Below are positions 1-10,096 of a stretch of DNA of 10,096 nucleotides, piece after piece. Source of the stretch: a virus. Taxonomy: Duplodnaviria > Heunggongvirae > Uroviricota > Caudoviricetes. The translations under genes were made by a program, and so were the position numbers. The notes under the pieces are model-generated. The model was not told the DNA's origin and did not search any database. It was given only the letters and a program-made list of their open reading frames with translations. Location: IMG/VR virus record IMGVR_UViG_2734482585_000006; one strand, 5' to 3'. The stretch's first letter is position 1, and every line of letters begins with the position of its first letter.

Positions 1-18
1 CTCTCGTCTGGGGAATAT

Positions 19-107
19 CTCCCCGGCAGCCTTCAGGGAAAAATATCATCAGATGGCTGCTTAAAAAAAGAACAAATGGTAGTGTCCGCTATTGCCAGTA
101 CACCTCA
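19..107. repeat. Left arm of perfect 89-bp terminal inverted repeat (partner 10008-10096)
   Basis: Base-by-base comparison: 19-107 is the exact reverse complement of 10008-10096. Identity breaks at 108 (t) vs 10007 (c). The right arm ends at the last base of the window, so the repeat may extend further. Confidence 0.9.
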
Positions 108-306
108 TCCATCACCGAAAAAAATTGGCTTTTACACCATTGGCGATAAAAGCATTTACCTGTATGACCTACGCCGCATGGATGAAATCATGGAGGCTCT
201 TGATAATCGTTCGTCGATGGATTGGTGTGTTGCTGTTCATGATATGAATGCAGGGTTTGATGAAAAGATTTTGTTCCCCTCATCAGTTGAAAGCACTGCG
301 GGTTAA
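76..306 (+). CDS. Hypothetical protein; start uncertain, frame is open back to position 1
   Basis: 76-aa ORF ending TAA 304-306, immediately followed by a strong RBS for the next gene. The ATG at 76 lies inside the terminal inverted repeat and the same frame has no stop back to position 1, so this may be the 3' part of a longer gene or a chimeric frame created at the repeat junction. Confidence 0.3.
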   Translation: MVVSAIASTPHPSPKKIGFYTIGDKSIYLYDLRRMDEIMEALDNRSSMDWCVAVHDMNAGFDEKILFPSSVESTAG

Positions 307-316
307 GGAGTAACAC

Positions 317-484
317 ATGACCACTATTACCAAAGAACGTATTGAATTGTTCATTAAAAACCCGCTTGAAAACGGGCTTACCCGTGGTGAACAAATGGAA
401 CTGGCACGGATTGCGCTGGCATCGCTGGAAGCAGAGCCGGTTGTGTTCTGGTTTGAAAAATATCAAGAAGGGGCTACGGCATGA
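317..484 (+). CDS. Hypothetical small phage protein (55 aa)
   Basis: ATG at 317 preceded by consensus SD AAGGAG (305-310) at 6-nt spacing; stop TGA 482-484 overlaps the ATG of the next ORF (ATGA). Not in the ORF track (below length cut-off). Contains the motif [10 protein letters not shown], shared with the next ORF. Confidence 0.5.
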
Positions 485-825
485 CGACTTTTACCAGAGA
501 GCAGTTAATAGCTCACGCAGAGGAGACTATTGAAGCACAGAGACTGTGCATACCGGGCACAATCGACCATGACATCATCCGCACATATAAGATGGATATT
601 GCTGTTCTGGAAATCGCACTGGTATCGCTGGCAGCAGAGCCAGCCGGTAAATTGCATGAATACAAACCAGTGGGATATCAGCGTCTGGTCGATGAGTTAA
701 CCATGCTGGTAAAGCAGTTAACCTGGCAACTGAGGAAAGCGAAGCCAGACTGCAAATTACCGGATAAGGCGATGAGTTATCTGGAGCGGAACGGACTGAT
801 AAGCGTGGAGGATATTTTACGATGA
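481..825 (+). CDS. Hypothetical phage protein (114 aa)
   Basis: ORF coupled to the upstream gene (ATGA overlap at 481-484) and to a downstream mini-ORF (ATGA at 822-825). N-terminus MTTFTREQL resembles the N-terminus of ORF 6009-6251 (MTFTPEQL); internal motif [10 protein letters not shown] echoes the 55-aa ORF. Confidence 0.55.
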
Positions 826-905
826 CCTGGCCTGAAGCATTAACAACGGTAGGAATTGCGATGGCGGTGGCGCTGGTGGTGTATTCGATTTGCCGCTGGG
901 GATAA
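822..905 (+). CDS. Possible small hydrophobic peptide (27 aa)
   Basis: ATG 822 overlaps the stop of the upstream gene; translation [27 protein letters not shown] has a single hydrophobic stretch. Short, so a chance ORF is possible. Confidence 0.3.
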
Positions 906-1116
906 AAACGGTTTGCGGGAAAAGGAGAGTTAAGTAGAATTGCAGCGGGTGCTTGAGGCTATCTGTCTCAGGCATGAACACCAAAAGGCAGATAGAGAAA
1001 AGCCCCAGTTAACATTACGCGTCCGGCAAGACGCTTAACATTAATCTGAGGCTCAATCTATGAACGGCAAATCTAGGTTAGCCTCTTACGTGCCGAAAGG
1101 CAAGGAGAAGCAGGCT

Positions 1117-1272
1117 ATGAAGCAGCAAAAGGCGATGTTAATCGCCCTGATCGTCATCTGTTTAACCGTCATAGTGACGGCACTGGTAACGAGGAAAGAC
1201 CTCTGCGAGGTACGAATTCGAACCGGCCAGACGGAGGTCGCTGTCTTCACAGCTTACGAACCTGAGGAGTAA
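1117..1272 (+). CDS. hok: Hok/Gef family type I toxin (small membrane-depolarising peptide)
   Basis: Translation MKQQKAMLIALIVICLTVIVTALVTRKDLCEVRIRTGQTEVAVFTAYEPEE has the Hok-family pattern (N-terminal TM helix, two conserved Cys, EVA-x-F-x-AYE tail) and closely resembles chromosomal HokD/RelF as I recall it. AGGAG at 1103-1107 precedes the ATG. An in-frame upstream ATG at 1060 would give a 70-aa form. Confidence 0.85.
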   Translation: MKQQKAMLIALIVICLTVIVTALVTRKDLCEVRIRTGQTEVAVFTAYEPEE

Positions 1273-1340
1273 GAGACCAGGCGGGGGAGAAATCCCTCGC
1301 CACCTCTGATGGGGCAGGCATCCTCAATGCACCCACACTT

Positions 1341-1368
1341 AACCCGCTTCGGCGGGTTTTTGTTTTTA
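1341..1368 (+). terminator. Rho-independent terminator downstream of hok
   Basis: Stem cccgc (1343-1347) / gcggg (1352-1356) with ttcg loop, followed by tttttgttttt. Confidence 0.6.
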
Positions 1369-1492
1369 TTTTCAACGCGTTTGAAGTTTTAGATGGTGCC
1401 GGAATAGAATCAAAAATACTTAAGTAGCGCGCAGGGAGAAGAGGGATGGACCCCGAACAGGGGAGTGCTATTTATCTGGAAGGATTCTGTTG

Positions 1493-1774
1493 ATGAAAAT
1501 CGAAGAATTACGTGAAATTTTTAGTGAAGATGGCCTCTATACTGTGCGCGTTGAGAATGGCGCTATTGTCAGCCACTGCCTTCCAGACTACACAATTCTG
1601 ATAATTCAGCCGTCTTTGCCAGCAGGCACGGGCGGCGCTCTCACGCATTTAAATCTGATTGGTACCAGCATCCCCCATGCACTGAAGAACAGGCCGAATG
1701 GCTCATTCAGTGTTACCGCAGGCGCGGATGCGAGGTTAAAAAAGCCCTTAGCCTCGACTACCGTCACTGGATAA
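1493..1774 (+). CDS. Hypothetical protein (93 aa); sits where rem lies in the K-12 Qin prophage, by recalled gene order only
   Basis: ATG at 1493 with GGAAGGA about 8 nt upstream (the track starts at TTG 1490). No recognisable motif. Confidence 0.4.
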   Translation: MKIEELREIFSEDGLYTVRVENGAIVSHCLPDYTILIIQPSLPAGTGGALTHLNLIGTSIPHALKNRPNGSFSVTAGADARLKKPLASTTVTG

Positions 1775-1849
1775 TCTCCGTCAGGCTCCCTTACTCCGAA
1801 CGGCCAACGCGTCCGTCCCGCACATTCCAGCAACGGATCTGGAGGTAAT

Positions 1850-2908
1850 GTGCGGGTATTACTTCGACCTGTTCTGGTACCGGAACTCGGTCTGGTTATC
1901 GTTAAGCCAGGCCGTGAATCAATGTCAGCATTCCATAACGGCAGAATACTGGTGGAGCCGGAACCAAAAAGCATGCGTAATCTGCCGTCCGGGGTCGTTC
2001 CTGCCGCTCGCCAGCCGCTGGTGGAAGACAAAACATTGCTGCCGTTTTTCAGTAACGCACGGGTGATTCGTGCTGCTGGTGGTGCTGGTGCATTGTCTGA
2101 CTGGCTGTTGCGCCATATTAAATCCTGCCAGTGGCCACACGGCGATTATCATCACAGCGAAACCGTCATTCACCGTTATGGTACCGGCGCAATGGTGTTG
2201 TGCTGGCACTGCGACAACCAGCTGCGTGACCAGACATCCGAATCACTCGAGCAACTTGCTCATCAAAACCTGTCAGCATGGATGATTGACGTCATCGGTC
2301 ACGCAATAAGCGGTACGCAGGAGCGTGAATTATCTCTGGCTGAATTATCCTGGTGGGCGGTCCGCAATCAGGTGGCGGACGCGCTACCGGAAGCGGTATT
2401 ACGTCGTTCGCTGGGGTTGCGTGCGGAAAAAATTCGCTCTGTGTACAGTGAAAGCGACATCATACCGGGAGAGCAGACAGCCACCAGCATACTGAAGCAG
2501 CGCACAAAAAATATTGCGTTACTGCCTCACGTCCACCAGCAACAGAACCCACCACAGGAAAAGACGGTGGTCAGCATTGCCGTTGATCCGGAGTCACCGG
2601 CTCAGTATCTCCAGCGCCAGAAATCACAACGGGAAGAGATGCCTGTATACACGCGCTGGGTAAAAACGCAGAAATGCATGACGTGTGGCAATCAGGCAGA
2701 TGATCCGCATCACATCATTGGTCATGGACTGGGAGGGATGGGAACAAAGGCTGATGATTTGTTTGTTATTCCGTTATGCCGTAAATGCCGTAACGAACTA
2801 CATGCCGGAGTAAAAGATTTTGAAGAGAAACACGGCAGTCAGCTGTTGTTGCTGATTCGTTTTTTAATGCACGCGAGAAATTCGGGTGTTCTGAAGTGGA
2901 AAGCATAA
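1850..2908 (+). CDS. DUF968-like prophage protein (YdfU-like) with C-terminal HNH/zinc-finger-like Cys-His motif
   Basis: 352-aa ORF; GTG 1850 is 4 nt after GGAGG (1841-1845); alternative ATG at 1922. C-terminal CMTCGNQADDPHHIIGH...CRKCRNELH is a CxxC...HH...CxxC...H pattern. Stop TAA 2906-2908 abuts the rusA ATG at 2909. Family call is from memory. Confidence 0.7.
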   Translation: MRVLLRPVLVPELGLVIVKPGRESMSAFHNGRILVEPEPKSMRNLPSGVVPAARQPLVEDKTLLPFFSNARVIRAAGGAGALSDWLLRHIKSCQWPHGDYHHSETVIHRYGTGAMVLCWHCDNQLRDQTSESLEQLAHQNLSAWMIDVIGHAISGTQERELSLAELSWWAVRNQVADALPEAVLRRSLGLRAEKIRSVYSESDIIPGEQTATSILKQRTKNIALLPHVHQQQNPPQEKTVVSIAVDPESPAQYLQRQKSQREEMPVYTRWVKTQKCMTCGNQADDPHHIIGHGLGGMGTKADDLFVIPLCRKCRNELHAGVKDFEEKHGSQLLLLIRFLMHARNSGVLKWKA

Positions 2909-3289
2909 ATGACCGAGCGCATAGAATTTGTTTTACCTTACCCGCCGACGGTGAACACTTACTGGCGTCGTCGTGGCAGCACATATTTTGTATCAAAAGC
3001 CGGGGAGCGTTATCGCCGGGCAGTGGCGCTTATTGTTCGCCAGCAGCGGCTGAAATTAAGCCTGTCCGGAAGGTTGGCAATAAAAATTATTGCAGAACCA
3101 CCGGATAAGCGCCGCCGTGACCTGGACAATATTCTGAAAGCGCCGCTGGATGCGCTGACGCATGCGGGGTTGCTAATGGACGATGAGCAGTTTGATGAAA
3201 TCAATATCGTTCGTGCTCAGCCAGTATCTGGTGGACGTCTGGGGGTGAAGATTTATCCCATAATGCTTGAAGGGCAGGTCAAAAAATGA
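2909..3289 (+). CDS. rusA: Crossover junction endodeoxyribonuclease RusA (Holliday junction resolvase), copy 1
   Basis: 126-aa protein with RusA-family motifs (YPPTVNTYW, PDKRRRDLDN, GGRL); stop overlaps the Q start (ATGA at 3286-3289). Confidence 0.9.
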   Translation: MTERIEFVLPYPPTVNTYWRRRGSTYFVSKAGERYRRAVALIVRQQRLKLSLSGRLAIKIIAEPPDKRRRDLDNILKAPLDALTHAGLLMDDEQFDEINIVRAQPVSGGRLGVKIYPIMLEGQVKK

Positions 3290-3976
3290 AACTGGAAGAT
3301 TTACCGAAATACTACTCCCCAAAATCCCCCGGCCTGACTGATGCATCGGCCTCAACGTCGAAAGATGCGCTGAGTATCACTGATGTGATGGCCGCGCAGG
3401 GCATGACACAGAATCGGGCTGAGATGGGGGTTTCTGCGTTCCTTGGGAAAATGGGCATTAGTATGAATGACAGAGAGCGGGCAACAGAATTGCTGACAGA
3501 ATATGCACTCAGTCGGTGTGATCGCGTGGCGGCGTTAAGAAAACTCCCGGCAGAAATAAAACCGGCAGTGATGCGTATTATGGCTTCGTATGCGTTTGAA
3601 GATTATGCCCGTAGCGCGGCGAGCAAAAAACAGTGCNNNNNNNNNNNNNNNNNNNNNNNNNNNNNNNNNNNNNNNNNNNNNNNNNNNNNNNNNNNNNNNN
3701 NNNNNNNNNNNNNNNNNNNNNNNNNNNNNNNNNNNNNNNNNNNNNNNNNNNNNNNNNNNNNNNNNNNNNNNNNNNNNNNNNNNNNNNNNNNNNNNNNNNN
3801 NNNNNNNNNNNNNNNNNNNNNNNNNNNNNNNNNNNNNNNNNNNNNNNNNNNNNNNNNNNNNNNNNNNNNNNNNNNNNNNNNNNNNNNNNNNNNNNNNNNN
3901 NNNNNNNNNNNNNNNNNNNNNNNNNNNNNNNNNNNNNNNNNNNNNNNNNNNNNNNNNNNNNNNNNNNNNNNNNNNN
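3286..3976 (+). CDS. Late-gene antitermination protein Q, copy 1 (3' part N-masked; true stop unknown)
   Basis: The first 117 aa before the mask are about 95% identical to the full-length copy at 6622-7476. Sequence after the mask (3977 onward) matches the sequence just downstream of the copy-2 stop, so the stop is probably inside the mask. The mask is 340 nt where copy 2 has about 507 nt, so the two copies differ in length. Confidence 0.7.
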
Positions 3977-4012
3977 TGGGCGTTTTATGCCTGACGTTAG
4001 AAGAGTTTCTAC

Positions 4013-4037
4013 AACCCGCCGCCGAGCGGGTTTTTTA
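4013..4037 (+). terminator. tR'-like Rho-independent terminator downstream of Q copy 1
   Basis: cccgc (4015-4019) / gcggg (4026-4030) stem followed by tttttt (4031-4036); same sequence as the terminator after Q copy 2. Confidence 0.65.
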
Positions 4038-4156
4038 TGACTGAAATCGCGTCAGTACAGTAAACGCGCTGGTGGCGGTGAATACCTGTCTTTCAGCTTG
4101 CTGGCTTTTTCGACAAGAGTTATTGGTGTGTCACGTTAACCGGAAAAGGAAAAGAC

Positions 4157-4354
4157 ATGCTAAAACAGCAGGATATGACAGAAACCGCCAGAGTGGTGTT
4201 TAATGAATTAAGCGTTACCGAACCGGCGACAGTCGGGGAGATAGCGCAGAATACTTACCTTTCACGCGAACGCTGCCAGTTAATACTGACCCAGCTGGTT
4301 ATGGCGGGTCTGGCAGACTATCAGTTCGGTTGTTACAGACGCCTTCCGCAGTGA
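4157..4354 (+). CDS. Small winged-helix DNA-binding protein, PapI/FaeA-like (65 aa)
   Basis: AAGGA (4146-4150) 6 nt before the ATG. The segment ATVGEIAQNTYLSRERCQLILTQLVMAGL resembles the recognition-helix region of PapI/FaeA-family regulators (compare PapI [28 protein letters not shown], from memory). The stop lies inside a terminator hairpin. Confidence 0.5.
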   Translation: MLKQQDMTETARVVFNELSVTEPATVGEIAQNTYLSRERCQLILTQLVMAGLADYQFGCYRRLPQ

Positions 4355-4366
4355 AGGCTTTTTTAT
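4341..4366 (+). terminator. Rho-independent terminator after the small winged-helix gene
   Basis: Perfect 6-bp stem gccttc (4341-4346) / gaaggc (4353-4358) followed by ttttttat. Confidence 0.6.
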
Positions 4367-4381
4367 TTGTGGTAAATGGGC

Positions 4382-4412
4382 GGCTGGTGGGTGTTAGGGG
4401 CACCCACCAGCC
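4382..4412. repeat. Perfect 12-bp-stem hairpin / palindrome
   Basis: ggctggtgggtg (4382-4393), 7-nt loop, cacccaccagcc (4401-4412); no U-tract follows, so not an obvious terminator. Lies about 90 nt upstream of the methyltransferase gene. Confidence 0.5.
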
Positions 4413-4504
4413 ATCTGCTCATGCGTTGGGTTCACAAGCAAACCTCAGGCCCACTGCTTTGCGCAAAAGCAGAATGAGCCTATCAGAGACAGGCTTAATG
4501 ATCC

Positions 4505-5563
4505 ATGCTTAATACTGTAAAAATATCCAGTTGTGAGTTAATCAACGCCGACTGCCTGGAATTTATCCGGTCGTTACCCGAAAATTCTGTTGACCTGATA
4601 GTCACGGACCCGCCGTACTTTAAAGTGAAGCCTGAGGGCTGGGATAACCAGTGGAAGGGCGACGATGATTACCTGAAGTGGCTGGACCAGTGTCTGGCGC
4701 AGTTCTGGCGGGTGCTGAAACCTGCCGGAAGTCTTTACCTGTTCTGTGGTCATCGCCTGGCATCTGATATCGAAATCATGATGCGTGAACGCTTCAGTGT
4801 GCTGAACCATATTATCTGGGCGAAGCCGTCCGGACGCTGGAACGGATGCAACAAGGAAAGCCTGCGGGCGTATTTCCCCGCCACAGAGCGCATTCTGTTC
4901 GCGGAACATTATCAGGGGCCGTATCGTCCGAAAGATGCCGGGTATGCGGCGAAGGGCAGTGCACTGAAACAGCATGTGATGGCCCCGCTGATTTCTTACT
5001 TTCGTGATGCGCGAGCTGCCCTGGGGATAACGGCAAAACAGATTGCAGATGCCACAGGAAAGAAAAACATGGTGTCGCACTGGTTCAGTGCCGGTCAGTG
5101 GCAGTTGCCGAATGAAAGCGATTATCTGAAATTACAGGCGCTGTTTGCCCGGGTGGCAGAAGAGAAGCATCGGCGTGGTGAACTGGAAAAGCTCCACCAC
5201 CAGCTGGTGGATACGTATACCTCACTGAACCGGCAGTATGCGGAGCTGCTGAGTGAATATAAACATCTGCGGCGGTATTTTGGCGTGACGGTGCAGGTGC
5301 CGTATACCGATGTGTGGACGCATAAACCGGTGCAGTTCTATCCCGGGAAACATCCGTGCGAAAAACCGGCAGAAATGCTGCAGCAGATAATCAGCGCTAG
5401 CAGTCGTCCGGGTGACCTGATTGCAGATTTTTTCATGGGGTTGGGTTCGACAGTGAAAGCGGCACTGGCGCTCGGGCGTCGTGCAATTGGCGTTGAGCTG
5501 GAGACTGAACGTTTTGAGCAGACGGTTCGGGAAGTACAGGATTTAGTCAGCCAGAACGGATGA
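4505..5563 (+). CDS. Orphan DNA N6-adenine methyltransferase (beta-class, motif IV before motif I)
   Basis: 352-aa ORF with catalytic DPPY early (LIVTDPPYF) and the AdoMet-binding FxGxG near the C-terminus (DFFMGLGST); this order defines beta-class amino-MTases. No restriction endonuclease partner is visible. Weak RBS. Confidence 0.85.
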   Translation: MLNTVKISSCELINADCLEFIRSLPENSVDLIVTDPPYFKVKPEGWDNQWKGDDDYLKWLDQCLAQFWRVLKPAGSLYLFCGHRLASDIEIMMRERFSVLNHIIWAKPSGRWNGCNKESLRAYFPATERILFAEHYQGPYRPKDAGYAAKGSALKQHVMAPLISYFRDARAALGITAKQIADATGKKNMVSHWFSAGQWQLPNESDYLKLQALFARVAEEKHRRGELEKLHHQLVDTYTSLNRQYAELLSEYKHLRRYFGVTVQVPYTDVWTHKPVQFYPGKHPCEKPAEMLQQIISASSRPGDLIADFFMGLGSTVKAALALGRRAIGVELETERFEQTVREVQDLVSQNG

Positions 5564-5603
5564 TATTGAAGAATTAATTACGCGTCGTTATTATGCGGCT
5601 CCC

Positions 5604-5679
5604 GGCCCTTTAGCTCAGTGGTGAGAGCGAGCGACTCATAATCGCCAGGTCGCTGGTTCAAATCCAGCAAGGGCCACCA
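5604..5679 (+). tRNA. tRNA with CAU anticodon (ileZ-like tRNA-Ile2 or tRNA-Met), copy 1
   Basis: Hand-folded cloverleaf: acceptor ggccctt/aagggcc, D-arm gctc/gagc, anticodon loop cuCAUaa, T-loop ttcaaat, discriminator A, CCA encoded. The phage context suggests ileZ as in Stx phages. Confidence 0.85.
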
Positions 5680-5686
5680 TCACATA

Positions 5687-5724
5687 CCGCCATTAGCTCA
5701 TCAGGAAAGAGCGCCAGCCTTCGA
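5687..5724 (+). tRNA. 5' part of a second tRNA (anticodon loop cuUCGa, possible tRNA-Arg), truncated by the N mask
   Basis: ccgccat acceptor strand, U8, D-arm gctc/gagc, anticodon stem ccagc, loop cttcga, then N. The 3' half cannot be seen. Confidence 0.35.
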
Positions 5725-6008
5725 NNNNNNNNNNNNNNNNNNNNNNNNNNNNNNNNNNNNNNNNNNNNNNNNNNNNNNNNNNNNNNNNNNNNNNNNNNNN
5801 NNNNNNNNNNNNNNNNNNNNNNNNNNNNNNNNNNNNNNNNNNNNNNNNNNNNNNNNNNNNNNNNNNNNNNNNNNNNNNNNNNNNNNNNNNNNNNNNNNNN
5901 NNNNNNNNNNNNNNNNNNNNNNNNNNNNNNNNNNNNNNNNNNNNNNNNNNNNNNNNNNNNNNNNNNNNNNNNNNNNNNNNNNNNNNNNNNNNNNTGAACA
6001 ACCAGACA

Positions 6009-6251
6009 ATGACTTTTACCCCTGAACAATTGCGTAAACACGCGCAGGAAATGCTGCGTCATGCTGAACAACTCGAAAAAACGGGCATAACAAAAGACGC
6101 TATCCGTAAAGATATGGTACCCGCGCTTCGGGAACTGATGCAGGCGAAGCATCGCGCACAGAAAGCAGTAGATGAGCTGGTGGACTGTGTGGCAGAGCTG
6201 GAAACCAGAGTCGGAAAGTTTGAAAAACTGGTGCAGGAGGTGCTGCGCTGA
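6009..6251 (+). CDS. Hypothetical small helical protein (80 aa)
   Basis: ORF MTFTPEQLRKHAQEMLRHAEQLEK...; stop TGA 6249-6251 overlaps the rusA copy-2 ATG by one base (TGATG). No SD, and the frame is open upstream into the N mask. N-terminus is paralogous to ORF 481-825. Confidence 0.5.
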   Translation: MTFTPEQLRKHAQEMLRHAEQLEKTGITKDAIRKDMVPALRELMQAKHRAQKAVDELVDCVAELETRVGKFEKLVQEVLR

Positions 6252-6625
6252 TGCGCCATGAGTTTATTTTACCTTATCCGCCGACGGTGAATACTTACTG
6301 GCGACGTCGTGACAACACATATTTTGTATCAAAAGCCGGTGAGCGTTATCGCCGGGATGTGGCGCTTATTGTCCGTCAGCAGCGACTGAAATTAAGCCTG
6401 TCCGGAAGACTGGCGATAAAGATTATTGCAGAGCCACCGGATAAGCGCCGTCGTGACCTGGACAATATCCTGAAAGCACCACTGGATGCACTGACACATG
6501 CGGGAGTGTTAATGGACGATGAGCAGTTTGATGAAATCAATATCGTTCGTGGTCAGCCAGTATCTGGTGGACGTCTGGGGGTGAAGATTTACCCCATAAT
6601 GCATGAAGAGCAGGTCAAAAAATGA
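6251..6625 (+). CDS. rusA: Crossover junction endodeoxyribonuclease RusA, copy 2
   Basis: 124-aa protein about 93% identical to copy 1 with the same RusA motifs; ATGA overlap with Q copy 2 at 6622-6625. Confidence 0.9.
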   Translation: MRHEFILPYPPTVNTYWRRRDNTYFVSKAGERYRRDVALIVRQQRLKLSLSGRLAIKIIAEPPDKRRRDLDNILKAPLDALTHAGVLMDDEQFDEINIVRGQPVSGGRLGVKIYPIMHEEQVKK

Positions 6626-7476
6626 AACTGGAAGATTTACCGAAATACTACTCCCCAAAATCCCCTTGCCTGACCGATGCATCGGCCTCAACGTCAAAAG
6701 ATGCGCTGAGTATCACTGATGTGATGGCCGCGCAGGGCATGACACAGAATCGGGCTGAGATGGGGTTTTCTGCGTTCCTGGGGAAAATGGGCATCAGTAT
6801 GAATGACAGGGCGCGGGCAACAGAATTACTGGCAGATTATGCACTCAGTCGGTGCGATCGTGTGGCGGCGTTGAGAAAACTTCCGGCAGAAATAAAACCG
6901 GTAGTGATGCGCATTATGGCTTCGTACGCTTTTGAGGATTATGCCCGCAGCGCAGCGAGTAAAAAGCAGTGCCCTTGTTGCTATGGGGAAAAATTTATTG
7001 AAAGCGTAGTTTTTACAAACAAGGTCCAGTATCCGGATGGTAAGCCGCCGGTATGGGCAAAGTGTACGAAAGGTGTGTATCCGTCTTACTGGGAAGAATG
7101 GAAAAAAGTCAGGGAGGTGGTAAAAGTTGCCTGTCCGGAGTGTGGCGGAAAGGGTGAGGTTTCCACCGCCTGTAAGGATTGCCGTGGGCGTGGTGTCGCC
7201 ATTCATCGTGAAGAGTCGGTAAAACGTGGTATGCCTGTTATCAGAGACTGCCAGCGTTGTGGTGGTCGTGGCTATGAAAGACTACCATCAACGGAGGCAT
7301 TTAATGCTATATGCGAGGTGACAAACCAGATAACACGCGCGTCATGGGAAAAAACAGTTAAGAAATTCTATGATGCGCTGGTGACTCGGTTTGATATTGA
7401 AGAAGCATGGGCTGAGCGGCAGTTAAAAAAGGTAACTAGGTTGATTTTTCCGGAATCTGTGGTAAATTCGTCATAA
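6622..7476 (+). CDS. Late-gene antitermination protein Q, copy 2 (full length, 284 aa)
   Basis: Position immediately after rusA and before a promoter-proximal terminator and tRNAs is the canonical Q slot in lambdoid phages. Carries CPCC plus three CxxCxGxG motifs (CPECGGKG, CKDCRGRG, CQRCGGRG). Family assignment is by position and recollection, not a search. Confidence 0.75.
   Translation: MKLEDLPKYYSPKSPCLTDASASTSKDALSITDVMAAQGMTQNRAEMGFSAFLGKMGISMNDRARATELLADYALSRCDRVAALRKLPAEIKPVVMRIMASYAFEDYARSAASKKQCPCCYGEKFIESVVFTNKVQYPDGKPPVWAKCTKGVYPSYWEEWKKVREVVKVACPECGGKGEVSTACKDCRGRGVAIHREESVKRGMPVIRDCQRCGGRGYERLPSTEAFNAICEVTNQITRASWEKTVKKFYDALVTRFDIEEAWAERQLKKVTRLIFPESVVNSS
7441..7468 (+). promoter_or_regulatory. 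Candidate late promoter (pR'-like) at the 3' end of Q
   Basis: TTGATT (7441-7446), 16-nt spacer, TAAATT (7463-7468); a start near 7475 would give a roughly 60-nt transcript ending at the terminator at 7516-7540, analogous to lambda 6S RNA and the qut region. Match by eye only. Confidence 0.3.
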
Positions 7477-7515
7477 CTATGGGCGTTTTATGCCTGACGT
7501 TAGAAGAGTTTCTAC

Positions 7516-7540
7516 AACCCGCCGCCGAGCGGGTTTTTTA
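7516..7540 (+). terminator. tR'-like Rho-independent terminator downstream of Q copy 2
   Basis: cccgc (7518-7522) / gcggg (7529-7533) stem followed by tttttt (7534-7539). Confidence 0.65.
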
Positions 7541-7578
7541 TTGCGGAATTAATTACGGACCGTTATTATTCTGCTCCC

Positions 7579-7654
7579 GGCCCTTTAGCTCAGTGGTGAG
7601 AGCGAGCGACTCATAATCGCCAGGTCGCTGGTTCAAATCCAGCAAGGGCCACCA
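7579..7654 (+). tRNA. tRNA with CAU anticodon (ileZ-like tRNA-Ile2 or tRNA-Met), copy 2
   Basis: Identical 76-nt sequence to 5604-5679. Confidence 0.85.
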
Positions 7655-7661
7655 TCACAAA

Positions 7662-7741
7662 CCGCCATTAGCTTATCAGGAAGAGCAGACGACACGATAA
7701 CAGGGTTGTTGGTGCGGGGGCGGGTCCCCGATGGCGGTCCA
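7662..7741 (+). pseudogene. Degenerate tRNA-like element (possible decayed second tRNA)
   Basis: Perfect 7-bp acceptor pairing ccgccat (7662-7668) / atggcgg (7730-7736), discriminator T, CCA, and a D-arm (gctt/gagc), but no canonical anticodon arm and a G-rich non-canonical T-loop. Its 5' part matches the partial tRNA at 5687-5724 and then diverges. Confidence 0.3.
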
Positions 7742-7754
7742 TTATCGGTATTCA

Positions 7755-7831
7755 GCGTTGTTAGCTCAGCCGGACAGAGCAATTGCCTTCTAAGCAATCG
7801 GTCACTGGTTCGAATCCAGTACAGCGCGCCA
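7755..7831 (+). tRNA. tRNA-Arg (anticodon UCU, reads AGA)
   Basis: Hand-folded cloverleaf: acceptor gcgttgt/acagcgc (one G-U), D-arm gctc/gagc, anticodon stem attgc/gcaat with loop cuUCUaa, T-arm actgg-ttcgaat-ccagt, CCA encoded. Likely argN/argO-type phage tRNA. Confidence 0.85.
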
Positions 7832-7941
7832 TATTCATTCTTCCAGATTCCTTCCGGCAGAGCCTTATACTGAAATATACCTGGCTCAGGATATTGTTGA
7901 AAATATTTTATGTTTGTCAAAAATAAAAGTTCTGTTAAGTA

Positions 7942-8295
7942 TTGATTGAGTGTTTGTTATACGGTCTAATGGTTTTTTCAGCATTAAATATTTATCATTC
8001 ATATGGTGTGGGTAGAGTGAATATTGATGAGGCGTCGGGGTGTTTCATCCTTAGGCAGCGTATTGATATAGTCAATGCAGCACGAGCAAAGGCCTTCAGC
8101 CGTTTGACAGTTTTGTTCTGTACTCCTGATCGTCTTTCGGGAAGAGACGTTATTATTCTGAATAGTGATGCTATACAGAGGGTTTGCGATGAGTTCATGG
8201 TTGCTAATTCAGAATTATTTGCTCTTGTTCAGGAGTACAACAGAATAGCCAGGACCTGTGGTATGGATGAACTTCGGATTACTCATCTGGGGTAG
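7942..8295 (+). CDS. Hypothetical cargo protein (117 aa from ATG 7942; alternative starts ATG 7969, GTG 8017)
   Basis: Longest ORF in the AT-rich block downstream of the tRNAs. No family recognised, and not Stx A or B. The 5' end overlaps promoter-like AT-rich sequence, so the true start may be internal. Confidence 0.35.
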   Translation: MIECLLYGLMVFSALNIYHSYGVGRVNIDEASGCFILRQRIDIVNAARAKAFSRLTVLFCTPDRLSGRDVIILNSDAIQRVCDEFMVANSELFALVQEYNRIARTCGMDELRITHLG

Positions 8296-8476
8296 ATACA
8301 TATCTGGATTATCACCTGTTACGGTAAAAAGTGATTGCTTACTGTTTTTGTGAATGGCATTGCAGCAGCCGGATAATGTCAGTGCTGGCTGACGGTGTGC
8401 TGGTGGCGGGTGTGGTGGTTGTTGCTTTCCCGTTGCTGAAAAAGAAAACGCCAGACTGTTAGCCGGGTATCAGTTA

Positions 8477-8789
8477 NNNNNNNNNNNNNNNNNNNNNNNN
8501 NNNNNNNNNNNNNNNNNNNNNNNNNNNNNNNNNNNNNNNNNNNNNNNNNNNNNNNNNNNNNNNNNNNNNNNNNNNNNNNNNNNNNNNNNNNNNNNNNNNN
8601 NNNNNNNNNNNNNNNNNNNNNNNNNNNNNNNNNNNNNNNNNNNNNNNNNNNNNNNNNNNNNNNNNNNNNNNNNNNNNNNNNNNNNNNNNNNNNNNNNNNN
8701 NNNNNNNNNNNNNNNNNNNNNNNNNNNNNNNNNNNNNNNNNNNNNNCTGTTGTCTGGTTTGCGGGGAGTTTGTTAAAAGAAACTGGCAT
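8477..8789 (-). CDS. Minus-strand cargo gene, N-terminus only (MPVSFNKLPANQTT...); remainder N-masked
   Basis: ATG at 8789-8787 on the minus strand with AGGGGG 7 nt upstream; the ORF runs into the mask, so its length and end are unknown. The track extension to 8379 depends on the frame through the N run and is not trusted. Confidence 0.3.
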
Positions 8790-8996
8790 GGTGAATCCCC
8801 CTGTGCGGAGGGGCAATCAGCGAGTAGGTATATGGGATAATCGCGGATTCAGGTGCTGGTACTGAATTCACCGGGAGGCACCCGGCATCATGCAATGGCA
8901 CATAGCGCCACTCTCCAGCCCTCTCCGGAGGGGCTTTTCTGTGCCGGATACATCACAGTTTCTGGAACCTTAGGTACTACAGTATCAGTCAGGGTG

Positions 8997-9620
8997 CTAT
9001 ATTTTCAGATGTGATGAAAGCCTGTCAGCAGGCAGGGCGTATCGGAAATGACCCAGTAGAGAAAACGTTGNNNNNNNNNNNNNNNNNNNNNNNNNNNNNN
9101 NNNNNNNNNNNNNNNNNNNNNNNNNNNNNNNNNNNNNNNNNNNNNNNNNNNNNNNNNNNNNNNNNNNNNNNNNNNNNNNNNNNNNNNNNNNNNNNNNNNN
9201 NNNNNNNNNNNNNNNNNNNNNNNNNNNNNNNNNNNNNNNNNNNNNNNNNNNNNNNNNNNNNNNNNNNNNNNNNNNNNNNNNNNNNNNNNNNNNNNNNNNN
9301 NNNNNNNNNNNNNNNNNNNNTTGCAGAGTGCAACGGTTATTAAAGCATTCATTCAATACGTTATCTGTATTTGTAGGGCATTCCTGGCTATTTTTGATTG
9401 AATTCCAGAATGTTTTATTGAATGGTACTACGTTGTAAATGGTTACAGGTAGCACTTTGTTATTGAGCATGATGCCTGTGTGAGTCAGTGTAAATATACT
9501 TTCAGGAGGTAAGAAAGCATCCGATTGATACCAGATTATTAATTTTATTTTACTCCATATGACTGAAAAAGATATTCCGCATGATGGCTGGATAACTGTA
9601 TCAATCACAATCCACTTCAT
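8997..9620 (-). CDS. Minus-strand AT-rich cargo gene (first 100 aa visible: [34 protein letters not shown]...), middle N-masked, end uncertain
   Basis: ATG at 9620 (minus) with AAGGA at 6-nt spacing; 100 codons are open before the mask. The mask is 250 nt (not a multiple of 3), so the stop at 8997 is not established. No family recognised. Confidence 0.45.
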
Positions 9621-9880
9621 TTAGTTTCCTTGTTTATGCCTTGCTGGTGATGTTCTGAAAAGTATAAATGATATTTTTGAATGTAAACCATAGAGCAGAA
9701 TTATTTTTCTGATGTTGTTTATTGTTTATTTAAATGCAGGGTGGTTTATATCTCGTCTTGTAGTTTATCCATGCATATCTGCTTGATAATCAGGTTTTTA
9801 TTTAAGGTATGGTTTTGTGTTTTTTCTGTATTACATGTCAGGTATTTTAAAGAATTATTTTTCAGATGGTGGAAAGAACC

Positions 9881-10054
9881 ATGGCATTTAAACACTATGA
9901 TGTTGTCAGGGCGGCGCCGCCGTCAGATCTTGCGGAAAAGCTGACACATAAACTGAAAGAGGGCTGGCAGCCGTTTGGTAGTCCGGTGGCCATAACCCCT
10001 TATACCCTGAGGTGTACTGGCAATAGCGGACACTACCATTTGTTCTTTTTTTAA
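9881..10054 (+). CDS. Small conserved-looking phage protein (57 aa, MAFKHYDVVRAAPPSDLAEKLTHKLKEGWQPFGSPVAITPYTLRCTGNSGHYHLFFF)
   Basis: ATG 9881 has a purine-rich stretch (GGTGGAAAG) just upstream; the track start 9866 has none. Diverges from the minus-strand cargo gene across an AT-rich intergenic region. The last 47 nt of the CDS and the 42 nt after it form the right arm of the terminal inverted repeat. Confidence 0.5.
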   Translation: MAFKHYDVVRAAPPSDLAEKLTHKLKEGWQPFGSPVAITPYTLRCTGNSGHYHLFFF

Positions 10055-10096
10055 GCAGCCATCTGATGATATTTTTCCCTGAAGGCTGCCGGGGAG
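10008..10096. repeat. Right arm of perfect 89-bp terminal inverted repeat (partner 19-107)
   Basis: Exact reverse complement of 19-107; runs to the last base of the window. Confidence 0.9.

Follow-up and report, generated by a model that had tools for sequence, protein, structure and literature searches.

The window analysed here is a stretch of 10,096 nucleotides from an IMG/VR virus record (IMGVR_UViG_2734482585_000006, Caudoviricetes) whose two ends carry a long perfect inverted repeat, and it raises the question of what this repeat is and whether the DNA lying between its arms constitutes a physical unit.

The inverted repeat and its identity

A repeat search of the window recovered the arms at positions 19-107 and 10008-10096, 89 nt in length, 100% complementary and with 9900 nt between them, exactly as described in a first-pass annotation made from the sequence alone. 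Their chance origin is excluded by simple arithmetic of our own (about 1e8 position pairs multiplied by 4^-89). The repeat exceeds 89 nt, its right arm being shortened solely by the window edge; the earlier suspicion that it might extend further proved correct, with a full 1264 bp per copy in finished Shigella sonnei genomes.

The repeat consists of the right-hand ends of two oppositely oriented copies of IS600, with their right ends facing inward, and is known, ordinary biology with no novel structure. Positions 1-107 are 100% identical to the final 107 nt of the element, as judged against a 1264-bp copy in a finished locus (L004, 8769-10032), and the reverse complement of 10008-10096 corresponds to its final 89 nt. 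The sequence shared by the arms comprises the right terminal inverted repeat together with the stop codon of transposase orfB and the 20 codons before it. Neither IS600 body falls inside the window, and the repeat ends precisely at the IS termini, at 107|108 and 10007|10008. When used as a query, the 107-nt segment matched 3433 E. coli records carrying an IS600/IS3 transposase annotation, for which the RefSeq label is "IS3-like element IS600 family transposase" with the note "programmed frameshift".

IS600 is an element of the IS3 family found in Shigella and E. coli, 1264 bp in length and generating a 3-bp target duplication, and we checked these attributes against the sequence. In the full copy of L004 the left terminal repeat (TGAGGTAGCCTGAG...) and the right one (TGAGGTGTACTGGC...) match at 20 of the first 30 positions and both ends start with TGAGGT; in the window the left-hand arm terminates in ...CACCTCA at 107. 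The same full copy has orfA in frame 1 and orfB in frame 0, with an A7G slippery site (AAAAAAAG) at IS position 316, and it encodes the Pfam domains HTH_Tnp_1, HTH_21 and rve (DDE transposase). Sequence identity, terminal repeats of the form 5'-TG...CA-3', the -1 frame relation of orfA and orfB and a DDE transposase together place the element in the IS3 family, the open reading frame, frameshift and domain features having been scored on the full L004 copy; of orfB, the window itself holds just the final 20 codons. While the arms are base-for-base equal to the right end of IS600 and full copies with the features of the family occupy the same junctions, the window takes in no more than 107 nt of one copy and 89 nt of the other, and no matching target duplications flank them in finished genomes.

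Junctions with the flanking genes

At the left junction, IS600 copy 1 cuts short a Rac-like hypothetical gene of 264 nt, the uninterrupted form of which is found in E. coli E7476 (L002, 2936-3199) and aligns to the window as an identical sequence from position 108 on. The reading frame open from position 1, which had been taken for the fusion, is actually the 3' end of the IS600 orfB; the real left fusion frame is that at 76-306, whose protein has exact matches in more than 80 blocks holding contigs of more than 1 Mb. At the right junction, copy 2 cuts off a DUF1737 gene behind its first 42 codons. Alignment with the uninterrupted homologue of STEC388 (L003) shows identity through 10010 and unrelated sequence beyond, with divergence at 10010/10011; the breakpoint lies at 10007|10008, the terminal TGA of the IS coinciding with the next three target bases. 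An intact paralogue of this gene in one of the two prophages described below (P1) encodes a 617-aa DUF1737-SASA-DUF6645 protein. The right arm is accordingly not the native 3' end of the gene at 9881-10054, as had been supposed, but IS600 sequence. The first-pass annotation was right in taking the arms to mark junctions, at both of which foreign, IS600-derived sequence is fused to prophage genes.

Table. Features of the window, with their prophage assignment and counterparts in finished genomes
Feature	Positions	Strand	Source, counterpart or content
IS600 copy 1, right end	1-107	+	Body leftward out of window; identical to 3' end of L004 IS600
Transposase orfB, 3' end	2-64, stop 62-64	+	Within IS600 copy 1; reads SRLGNISPAAFREKYHQMAA*
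Left chimeric ORF	76-306	+	10 IS600 codons, junction codon, then in-frame 3' 65 codons of Rac-like gene
Piece A	1-3636	+	P1 (ompW-side lambdoid remnant); 100% = L004 9926-13561; IS600 end, three small ORFs, hokD, DUF968, RusA, 5' third of Q
N-run 1	3637-3976		340 N; 515 nt in finished genomes
Piece B	3977-5724	+	P1; 100% = L004 14077-15824; sequence downstream of Q, 65-aa ORF, DNA methyltransferase, tRNA 5604-5679, start of next tRNA
N-run 2	5725-5994		270 N; P1-to-P2 switch; flanks about 0.73 Mb apart in CP022457
Piece C	5995-8476	+	P2; 100% = L014 6657-9138; 85-aa ORF (first base missing), RusA, Q (284 aa), tRNAs, DUF3927
N-run 3	8477-8746		270 N; in P2 only 41 nt from end of piece C to homologue of start of piece D
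Piece D	8747-9070	+	Small chimeric contig, P2 then P1 alleles (alignment)
N-run 4	9071-9320		250 N; P1-to-P2 switch
Piece E	9321-10096	+	P2; 100% = L014 9441-10216; iraM (minus strand), truncated DUF1737 gene, IS600 end
Right chimeric ORF	9881-10054	+	42 codons of DUF1737 gene (9881-10007), then 14 codons and stop from IS600
IS600 copy 2, right end	10008-10096	-	Body rightward out of window; full 1264-bp IS600 in L014-L023

Two prophages in finished genomes

Exact look-ups of the two chimeric reading frames returned two separate types of locus, belonging to two different defective lambdoid prophages, of which P1 adjoins ompW and P2 lies near cmoA/cmoB. Both junctions are present in many finished genomes, three of which were confirmed as Shigella sonnei (HE616528, CP022457 and CP060117), and the two IS600 insertions belong to different defective lambdoid prophages of this species. 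In CP022457 (strain 2015C-3566), the one genome that appeared in both junction look-ups and hence the only source of this distance, the P1 locus maps to about 4.097 Mb and the P2 locus to about 3.362 Mb, a separation of 734 kb, and the two IS600 copies show 0 mismatches across 1264 bp. In finished genomes the copies are oppositely oriented with their right ends inward, which is the topology seen in the window. The first-pass annotation had allowed that the repeat might be simply two copies of a common prophage gene in opposite orientation; this is close to what was found, with the common mobile element IS600 in place of the gene.

Contiguity of the window

What had been described as about 9.9 kb of Q-region DNA is broken into five pieces (A to E, see table) by four N-runs, which were left unmentioned there and account for 11% of the window. 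All three switches between P1 and P2 sequence fall within these runs, which by our own estimate random placement would achieve about 0.1% of the time. N-run 1, the one gap within a single prophage whose length could be compared, is 175 nt shorter than the corresponding sequence in every finished genome examined, and a segment of its length would frameshift Q; the sequence present there in finished genomes includes a 343-nt stretch exactly identical between the P1 and P2 Q genes. More generally, the contigs break at or near exact P1/P2 repeats, namely this stretch, another of 130 nt, and the IS600 ends. Piece D stands where P2 carries a different sequence: its first 11 nt contain two P2 alleles, while a later SNP and a 132-nt tail are P1-specific, and in P1 another IS600 follows 54 nt beyond this tail; the natural neighbours of the piece are piece B and the second IS600 of P1. 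The order A-B-C-D-E was found in 0 of 5426 complete E. coli genomes and in 0 of 20 fetched finished loci bearing the junctions, and no phage record covered at least 80% of the whole window. An exact pattern of the left junction gave 0 hits in a set of genome contigs and 0 in one of metagenome contigs, and the reading frames that cross the N-runs were not on record. In short, the pieces are joined by N-runs only, and finished genomes of this species show an order at odds with theirs.

The alternation of P1 and P2 pieces, the concealment of the switches by N, the mismatch in gap length and the chimeric piece indicate that the 9.9-kb bracket is most likely a scaffolding artefact and does not represent a physical unit. 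Short contigs of the paralogous prophages would have been chained across N-runs in the succession P1, P1, P2, P2/P1 chimera, P2, and because such a gapped scaffold joins pieces of two prophages, the IS600 ends would appear to be only 9.9 kb apart. Breaks at shared repeats, a chimeric contig and interleaved paralogues are all features of short-read mis-scaffolding of paralogous prophages, although here the gap lengths are unusual in being all multiples of 10. Taken as a whole, the explanation that combines two IS600 ends residing in P1 and P2 with a gapped scaffold joining the contigs of these prophages is very probably the correct one. The palindromic assembly artefact offered earlier as one possibility was most likely right as to an artefact but not as to its kind, since the repeat ends at an IS terminus and its flanks are unrelated, which does not fit a fold-back. 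As a separate observation, the Q gene of P2 is contiguous in piece C and that of P1 is broken at the shared repeat, a difference that a simple repeat-collapse model explains incompletely.

Two further readings were considered and discarded. A real tandem A-B-C-D-E arrangement was briefly suggested by 36 E. coli genomes in which a single place accounted for positions 108-10010 of the window, but annotation and BLAST of the best E. coli match showed a single RusA-Q module that takes both modules of the window, together with 1.8 kb absent from the window, and the tandem reading was rejected for this reason. The N-runs could likewise have been masks of true length; against this stand the 340 versus 515 nt of the first run and the 270 versus 41 nt of the third, and the same sequence is unmasked in the fetched loci, none of which contains a single N. 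The N-runs thus appear to be assembly gaps rather than masked real sequence.

That the window is nonetheless contiguous in its source strain, as a P1/P2 hybrid of about 9.9 kb bracketed by inverted IS600 with real sequence under the N-runs, appears unlikely. Such a hybrid could resemble a composite transposon or have arisen by strain-specific rearrangements, and would agree with the inward-facing right ends seen in finished genomes and with the extent to which IS elements rearrange S. sonnei genomes; yet it would leave all three prophage switches hidden by N, the frameshifted Q of gap 1, and a piece order that no finished genome shows, and no IS-mediated event explains how piece D came to replace P2's own sequence between two P2 pieces. 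The likeness to a composite transposon of the Tn10/Tn5 type lies in a segment flanked by two inverted copies of one IS, whereas here 734 kb separate the copies in a finished genome, where they occupy different prophages, and the interior in the window is a mosaic with four gaps. Moreover, the sequences on the outer sides of the two elements in finished genomes (...AATTTT and CTAATC...) form no direct repeat around the whole unit, the bases adjoining the IS being TTT and CTA, and a composite transposon was rejected for want of both this repeat and a contiguous mobile unit. A contiguous hybrid of two late-control regions that could in addition move or invert as a composite unit is more doubtful still; if real, it would hold two RusA-Q antiterminator modules, tRNAs, a DNA methyltransferase and iraM. 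An equally slim chance attaches to a version in which IS600 and the two prophages are correctly identified and the data provider, and no scaffolder error, spliced or masked unrelated neighbouring contigs with N spacers, for instance by concatenation in file order. The programmatic look of run lengths in multiples of 10 and the lack of N in the fetched loci would suit this, but the pieces are not ordered by size and share an origin in one pair of paralogous regions, an indication that linkage or similarity drove their placement. Least credible, to the point of being negligible, are an invertible segment of the Gin/Hin/Pin type and a palindromic fold-back. A long perfect inverted repeat at the two ends of the window is what either would predict, and a Pin-like resolvase gene does occur about 5 kb past the right IS600 in P2 loci, but that gene is part of a different phage remnant located beyond the repeat, the arms represent ends of IS600 rather than short crossover sites, and the reading frames of the window include no recombinase or invertase, in agreement with the first-pass annotation. 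In a fold-back the palindrome would be expected to run on into unique sequence; the repeat here ends at the IS terminus, with two unrelated prophage genes as its flanks.

Given a gapped scaffold assembled from two prophages as the preferred reading, the window is best not treated as a single uninterrupted locus, and the same caveat applies to any findings that rest on its apparent tandem RusA-Q-tRNA duplication. The importance of this is mainly one of housekeeping; the modest biological point is that finished genomes of S. sonnei conserve these two identical copies of IS600 in inverted orientation, with a recombinant junction in one genome.

Recombination between the IS600 copies

The recombinant junction was found in CP045932, where positions 1-10032 of the fetched locus (L012) correspond to the reverse complement of the P2 locus L014 (20159-10128, 99.94% identity), and positions 8769-20231 correspond to the P1 locus L004 (99.97%). 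This hybrid junction implies that the two IS600 copies have recombined, which would entail a large inversion, and its structure suggests homologous recombination between them as the mechanism. Such recombination between inverted copies could flip the intervening chromosome, making a site-specific invertase unnecessary. The reciprocal junction was absent among the returns of the right-junction look-up.

Other IS600 copies in the same loci retain target duplications (GGA/GGA and GTG/GTG), whereas in finished genomes the two bracketing copies have the unmatched flanks TTT/TCC and TAG/GGG, which indicates that rearrangements involved them afterwards. The partner of TCC at the left copy is displaced by about 2.2 kb and inverted; for the right copy no partner was found. 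Re-pairing the flanking bases among the IS600 copies of these loci yielded no combination that restores target duplications. The earlier proposal of an inversion between two oppositely oriented prophages merited consideration, in that the arms do derive from two prophages and CP045932 carries a recombinant, while the 9.9-kb juxtaposition itself is most likely due to scaffolding.

IS-mediated inversions of this type are already well documented in Shigella. On the E. coli K-12 map, ompW lies at about 1.31 Mb, dif at about 1.59 Mb and cmoA at about 1.95 Mb, and by extrapolation from these positions an inversion between the P1 and P2 copies would span the replication terminus region. Inversions through homologous recombination between inverted IS copies have been catalogued for S. 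sonnei (PMC12795559), and the present case resembles them in its two identical, inverted 1264-bp copies and in the hybrid junction of CP045932, with the differences that just a single reciprocal junction was observed of the expected two and that the segment measures about 0.73 Mb in the finished genome as against the 9.9 kb of the window.

Identity of the inverted repeat

A repeat search of the window bore out the inverted repeat of the first-pass annotation: its two arms, 19-107 and 10008-10096, are 89 nt long and 100% complementary, and simple arithmetic gives an expectation of ~1e-46 for such a repeat in 10 kb, which excludes chance. A megablast search with window 1-107 gave 99-100% identity to 3433 E. 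coli records, with the matches falling under features annotated as "IS3-like element IS600 family transposase"; in one annotated copy the transposase CDS is matched at its 3' end. As a reference we used the complete 1264-bp IS600 carried at the left junction by a finished genome (L004, one of the left-junction loci). The last 107 nt of this element are identical to window 1-107 and its last 89 nt to the reverse complement of 10008-10096, implying that both arms represent the same IS600 end. The reference copy shows the hallmarks of the IS3 family, namely terminal repeats (TGAGGTAGCC.../TGAGGTGTAC..., which agree at 20 of their first 30 positions), orfA and orfB in a -1 frame relation with a AAAAAAAG site, and the HTH_Tnp_1 and rve domains. 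Both arms are the right end of IS600, and the bodies of the elements fall beyond the window; the left copy is on the + strand and the right one on the - strand. What had been described as an ORF open from position 1 is the C-terminus of orfB (window 2-64, translated as SRLGNISPAAFREKYHQMAA*). The structure is thus an ordinary one, made up of the termini of two copies of an insertion sequence that is very common and already known.

Insertion points and truncated genes

On the left, identity to uninterrupted E. coli homologues begins exactly at position 108, within a Rac-like hypothetical gene of 264 nt. On the right, identity to the uninterrupted homologue is lost at 10007-10010, within a DUF1737 gene, where the TGA of the IS terminus coincides by chance with the next three target bases; hence the ORF 9881-10054, previously read as having a native 3' end, is a chimera. 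The product of the intact paralogue is a 617-aa DUF1737-SASA-DUF6645 protein. These comparisons show that two prophage genes are truncated by two IS600 insertions, whose termini are the arms.

The two chimeric ORFs served as unique tags, one per insertion. Exact matches to each tag came from hundreds of assemblies, and blocks holding contigs of >1 Mb numbered 83 (left tag) and 73 (right tag); neither junction, when both were searched, occurred in any complete E. coli genome. Three genomes are confirmed in the literature as Shigella sonnei: 53G (HE616528), 2015C-3566 (CP022457) and UKMCC1015 (CP060117). The left and right junctions belong to different loci, here termed P1 and P2, which are two defective lambdoid prophages. 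P1, carrying the left junction beside ompW, has the order IS600, truncated gene, hokD, DUF968, RusA, Q (273 aa), methyltransferase, tRNAs, second IS600, DUF1737-SASA gene and holin. P2, carrying the right junction near ipaH and cmoA/cmoB, has the order IS21/IS2, 85-aa ORF, RusA, Q (284 aa), tRNAs, DUF3927, iraM, truncated DUF1737 and IS600. In CP022457, where P1 is found around 4.09 Mb and P2 around 3.36 Mb, a distance of 734,401 bp separates the two IS600 copies, whose right ends point inward and whose sequences do not differ anywhere in their 1264 bp. In 53G an IS1 interrupts the right-arm IS600, 148 nt from the right end of the latter. The P2 loci also contain a Pin/Hin-type serine recombinase gene ~5 kb beyond the right IS600; it adjoins a Dam methylase, belongs to a separate phage remnant and appears to be unrelated to the repeat.

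Features of the window and of the compared loci (L004, left-junction locus; L014 and L016, right-junction loci)
Feature	Location	Strand	Remarks
Piece A	window 1-3636		P1, 100%
Gap 1	window 3637-3976		340 N
Piece B	window 3977-5724		P1, 100%
Gap 2	window 5725-5994		270 N
Piece C	window 5995-8476		P2, 100%
Gap 3	window 8477-8746		270 N
Piece D	window 8747-9070		P1-like, 99.7%
Gap 4	window 9071-9320		250 N
Piece E	window 9321-10096		P2, 100%
Left tag ORF	window 76-306		mirror case of the right tag: start within IS, in frame into 3' two-thirds of left gene
hokD-type type I toxin gene	window 1060-1272		HOK_GEF family, P1 part
Terminator-like hairpin	window ~1330-1360		downstream of hokD-type gene
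tRNA-Met (CAT)	window 5604-5679		by ARAGORN
tRNA-Met (CAT)	window 7579-7654		by ARAGORN
tRNA-Arg (TCT)	window 7755-7831
Right tag ORF	window 9881-10054		42 native DUF1737 codons, then IS-derived codons
Fusion of 5' 22 codons	L004 ~6220-6610	-	same in L005-L011, L013
Reference IS600	L004 8769-10032		complete, 1264 bp
Second IS600 of P1	L004 16398-17661		clean GGA target duplication
Serine recombinase ("Resolvase")	L014 16515-17066		183 aa
IS600 split by IS1 (53G)	L016 10128-12168		IS600 parts 10128-10275 and 11043-12168

Composition of the window

Comparison of the window with the fetched loci by BLAST resolves it into five pieces separated by four runs of N (see table), which the first-pass annotation had not mentioned and whose lengths are all multiples of 10. 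We argue that these runs are assembly joins rather than masked real sequence. Every switch between P1 and P2 is hidden inside one of them. Where comparable, the lengths contradict the finished genomes: all ten P1 loci and E. coli strain 131 have 515 nt at gap 1, where Q would be out of frame if the gap were truly 340 nt, and P2 has 41 nt at the place of gap 3. Gap 1 also overlies a 343-nt stretch exactly identical in the P1 and P2 Q genes, and no fetched locus contains any N. Piece D is a chimera in its own right: two P2-specific alleles lie in its first 11 nt, a downstream SNP and the 132-nt tail are P1-specific, and the crossover is located within a 130-nt exact shared stretch. In P1 this tail reaches another IS600 after 54 nt; in the window, piece D stands between two P2 pieces. 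Public contigs with the left tag are mostly 2-10 kb and those with the right tag mostly 2-5 kb, sizes consistent with short-read assemblies in which P1 and P2 form separate contigs bounded by IS elements, which likewise favors joins. In the real genome three of the five pieces abut right ends of IS600, a likely source of ambiguous scaffold links.

A whole-window search, a check able to overturn the scaffold reading, returned 36 E. coli genomes in which one place covers window 108-10010, as would a real tandem arrangement. By annotation and BLAST, the best match, strain 131, has a single prophage with one RusA-Q module, to which window 2917-3636 and 6257-7541 both map, and 1.8 kb of extra genes missing from the window; we accordingly reject a real tandem arrangement there, this strain being an uninterrupted relative that carries both target genes. 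Within the window, module likenesses at 90-96% identity (2917-3636 vs 6253-6972, 3977-4045 vs 7480-7548 and 5564-5707 vs 7539-7682) give the appearance of a RusA-Q-tRNA duplication. It is not real: each of the two S. sonnei prophages contributes one module, and the two are joined across an N-run. Findings resting on this apparent duplication need the same scaffold caveat. We infer that contigs of two paralogous prophages have most probably been chained into a gapped draft scaffold, the window, in which case the 9.9-kb "bracketed segment" is not a physical unit. Scaffolding would have joined the two IS600 ends within the window, which is probably mis-scaffolded.

The two tRNAs called as tRNA-Met have E. 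coli prophage homologues given as tRNA-Ile in RefSeq; we take them to be the isoleucine tRNA with a CAU anticodon of the lysidine type that is usual in lambdoid late regions.

Rearrangements at the two IS600 copies

Insertion of IS3 family elements yields 3-bp duplications, and those at the targets of other IS600 copies in the same loci are clean (GGA/GGA, GTG/GTG). The two window-linked copies have unmatched flanks, TTT/TCC and TAG/GGG, which shows that each was involved in later rearrangement. The 5' half of the target gene that is missing at the left copy keeps TCC and lies ~2.2 kb away, inverted; its 22 codons continue in frame into an integrase-like gene next to ompW, of which the 3' end is present. 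In the same loci (L004-L011, L013) a local inversion/deletion adjoins IS600, with the block DUF4014-70aa-(IS1)-DUF977 in the opposite orientation to that in E. coli relatives.

Identical inverted IS copies are substrates for RecA-dependent inversion. One of the 25 contigs read, CP045932 (L012), has a hybrid IS600 junction: its positions 1-10032 are the reverse complement of the P2 outer flank plus IS600 (L014 10128-20159, 99.94%), and the sequence from its IS600 on is that of P1 (99.97%). None of these 25 contigs showed the reciprocal junction. The hybrid shows that the P1-left and P2-right copies recombined, and matches what homologous recombination between the two inverted copies, which inverts the segment between them, should produce. 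Given the distance between these copies (0.73 Mb in CP022457), a large inversion is implied. A crossover between the two IS600 copies would thus have given rise to the CP045932 arrangement; inversions flanked by IS elements have been documented in S. sonnei genomes (PMC12795559).
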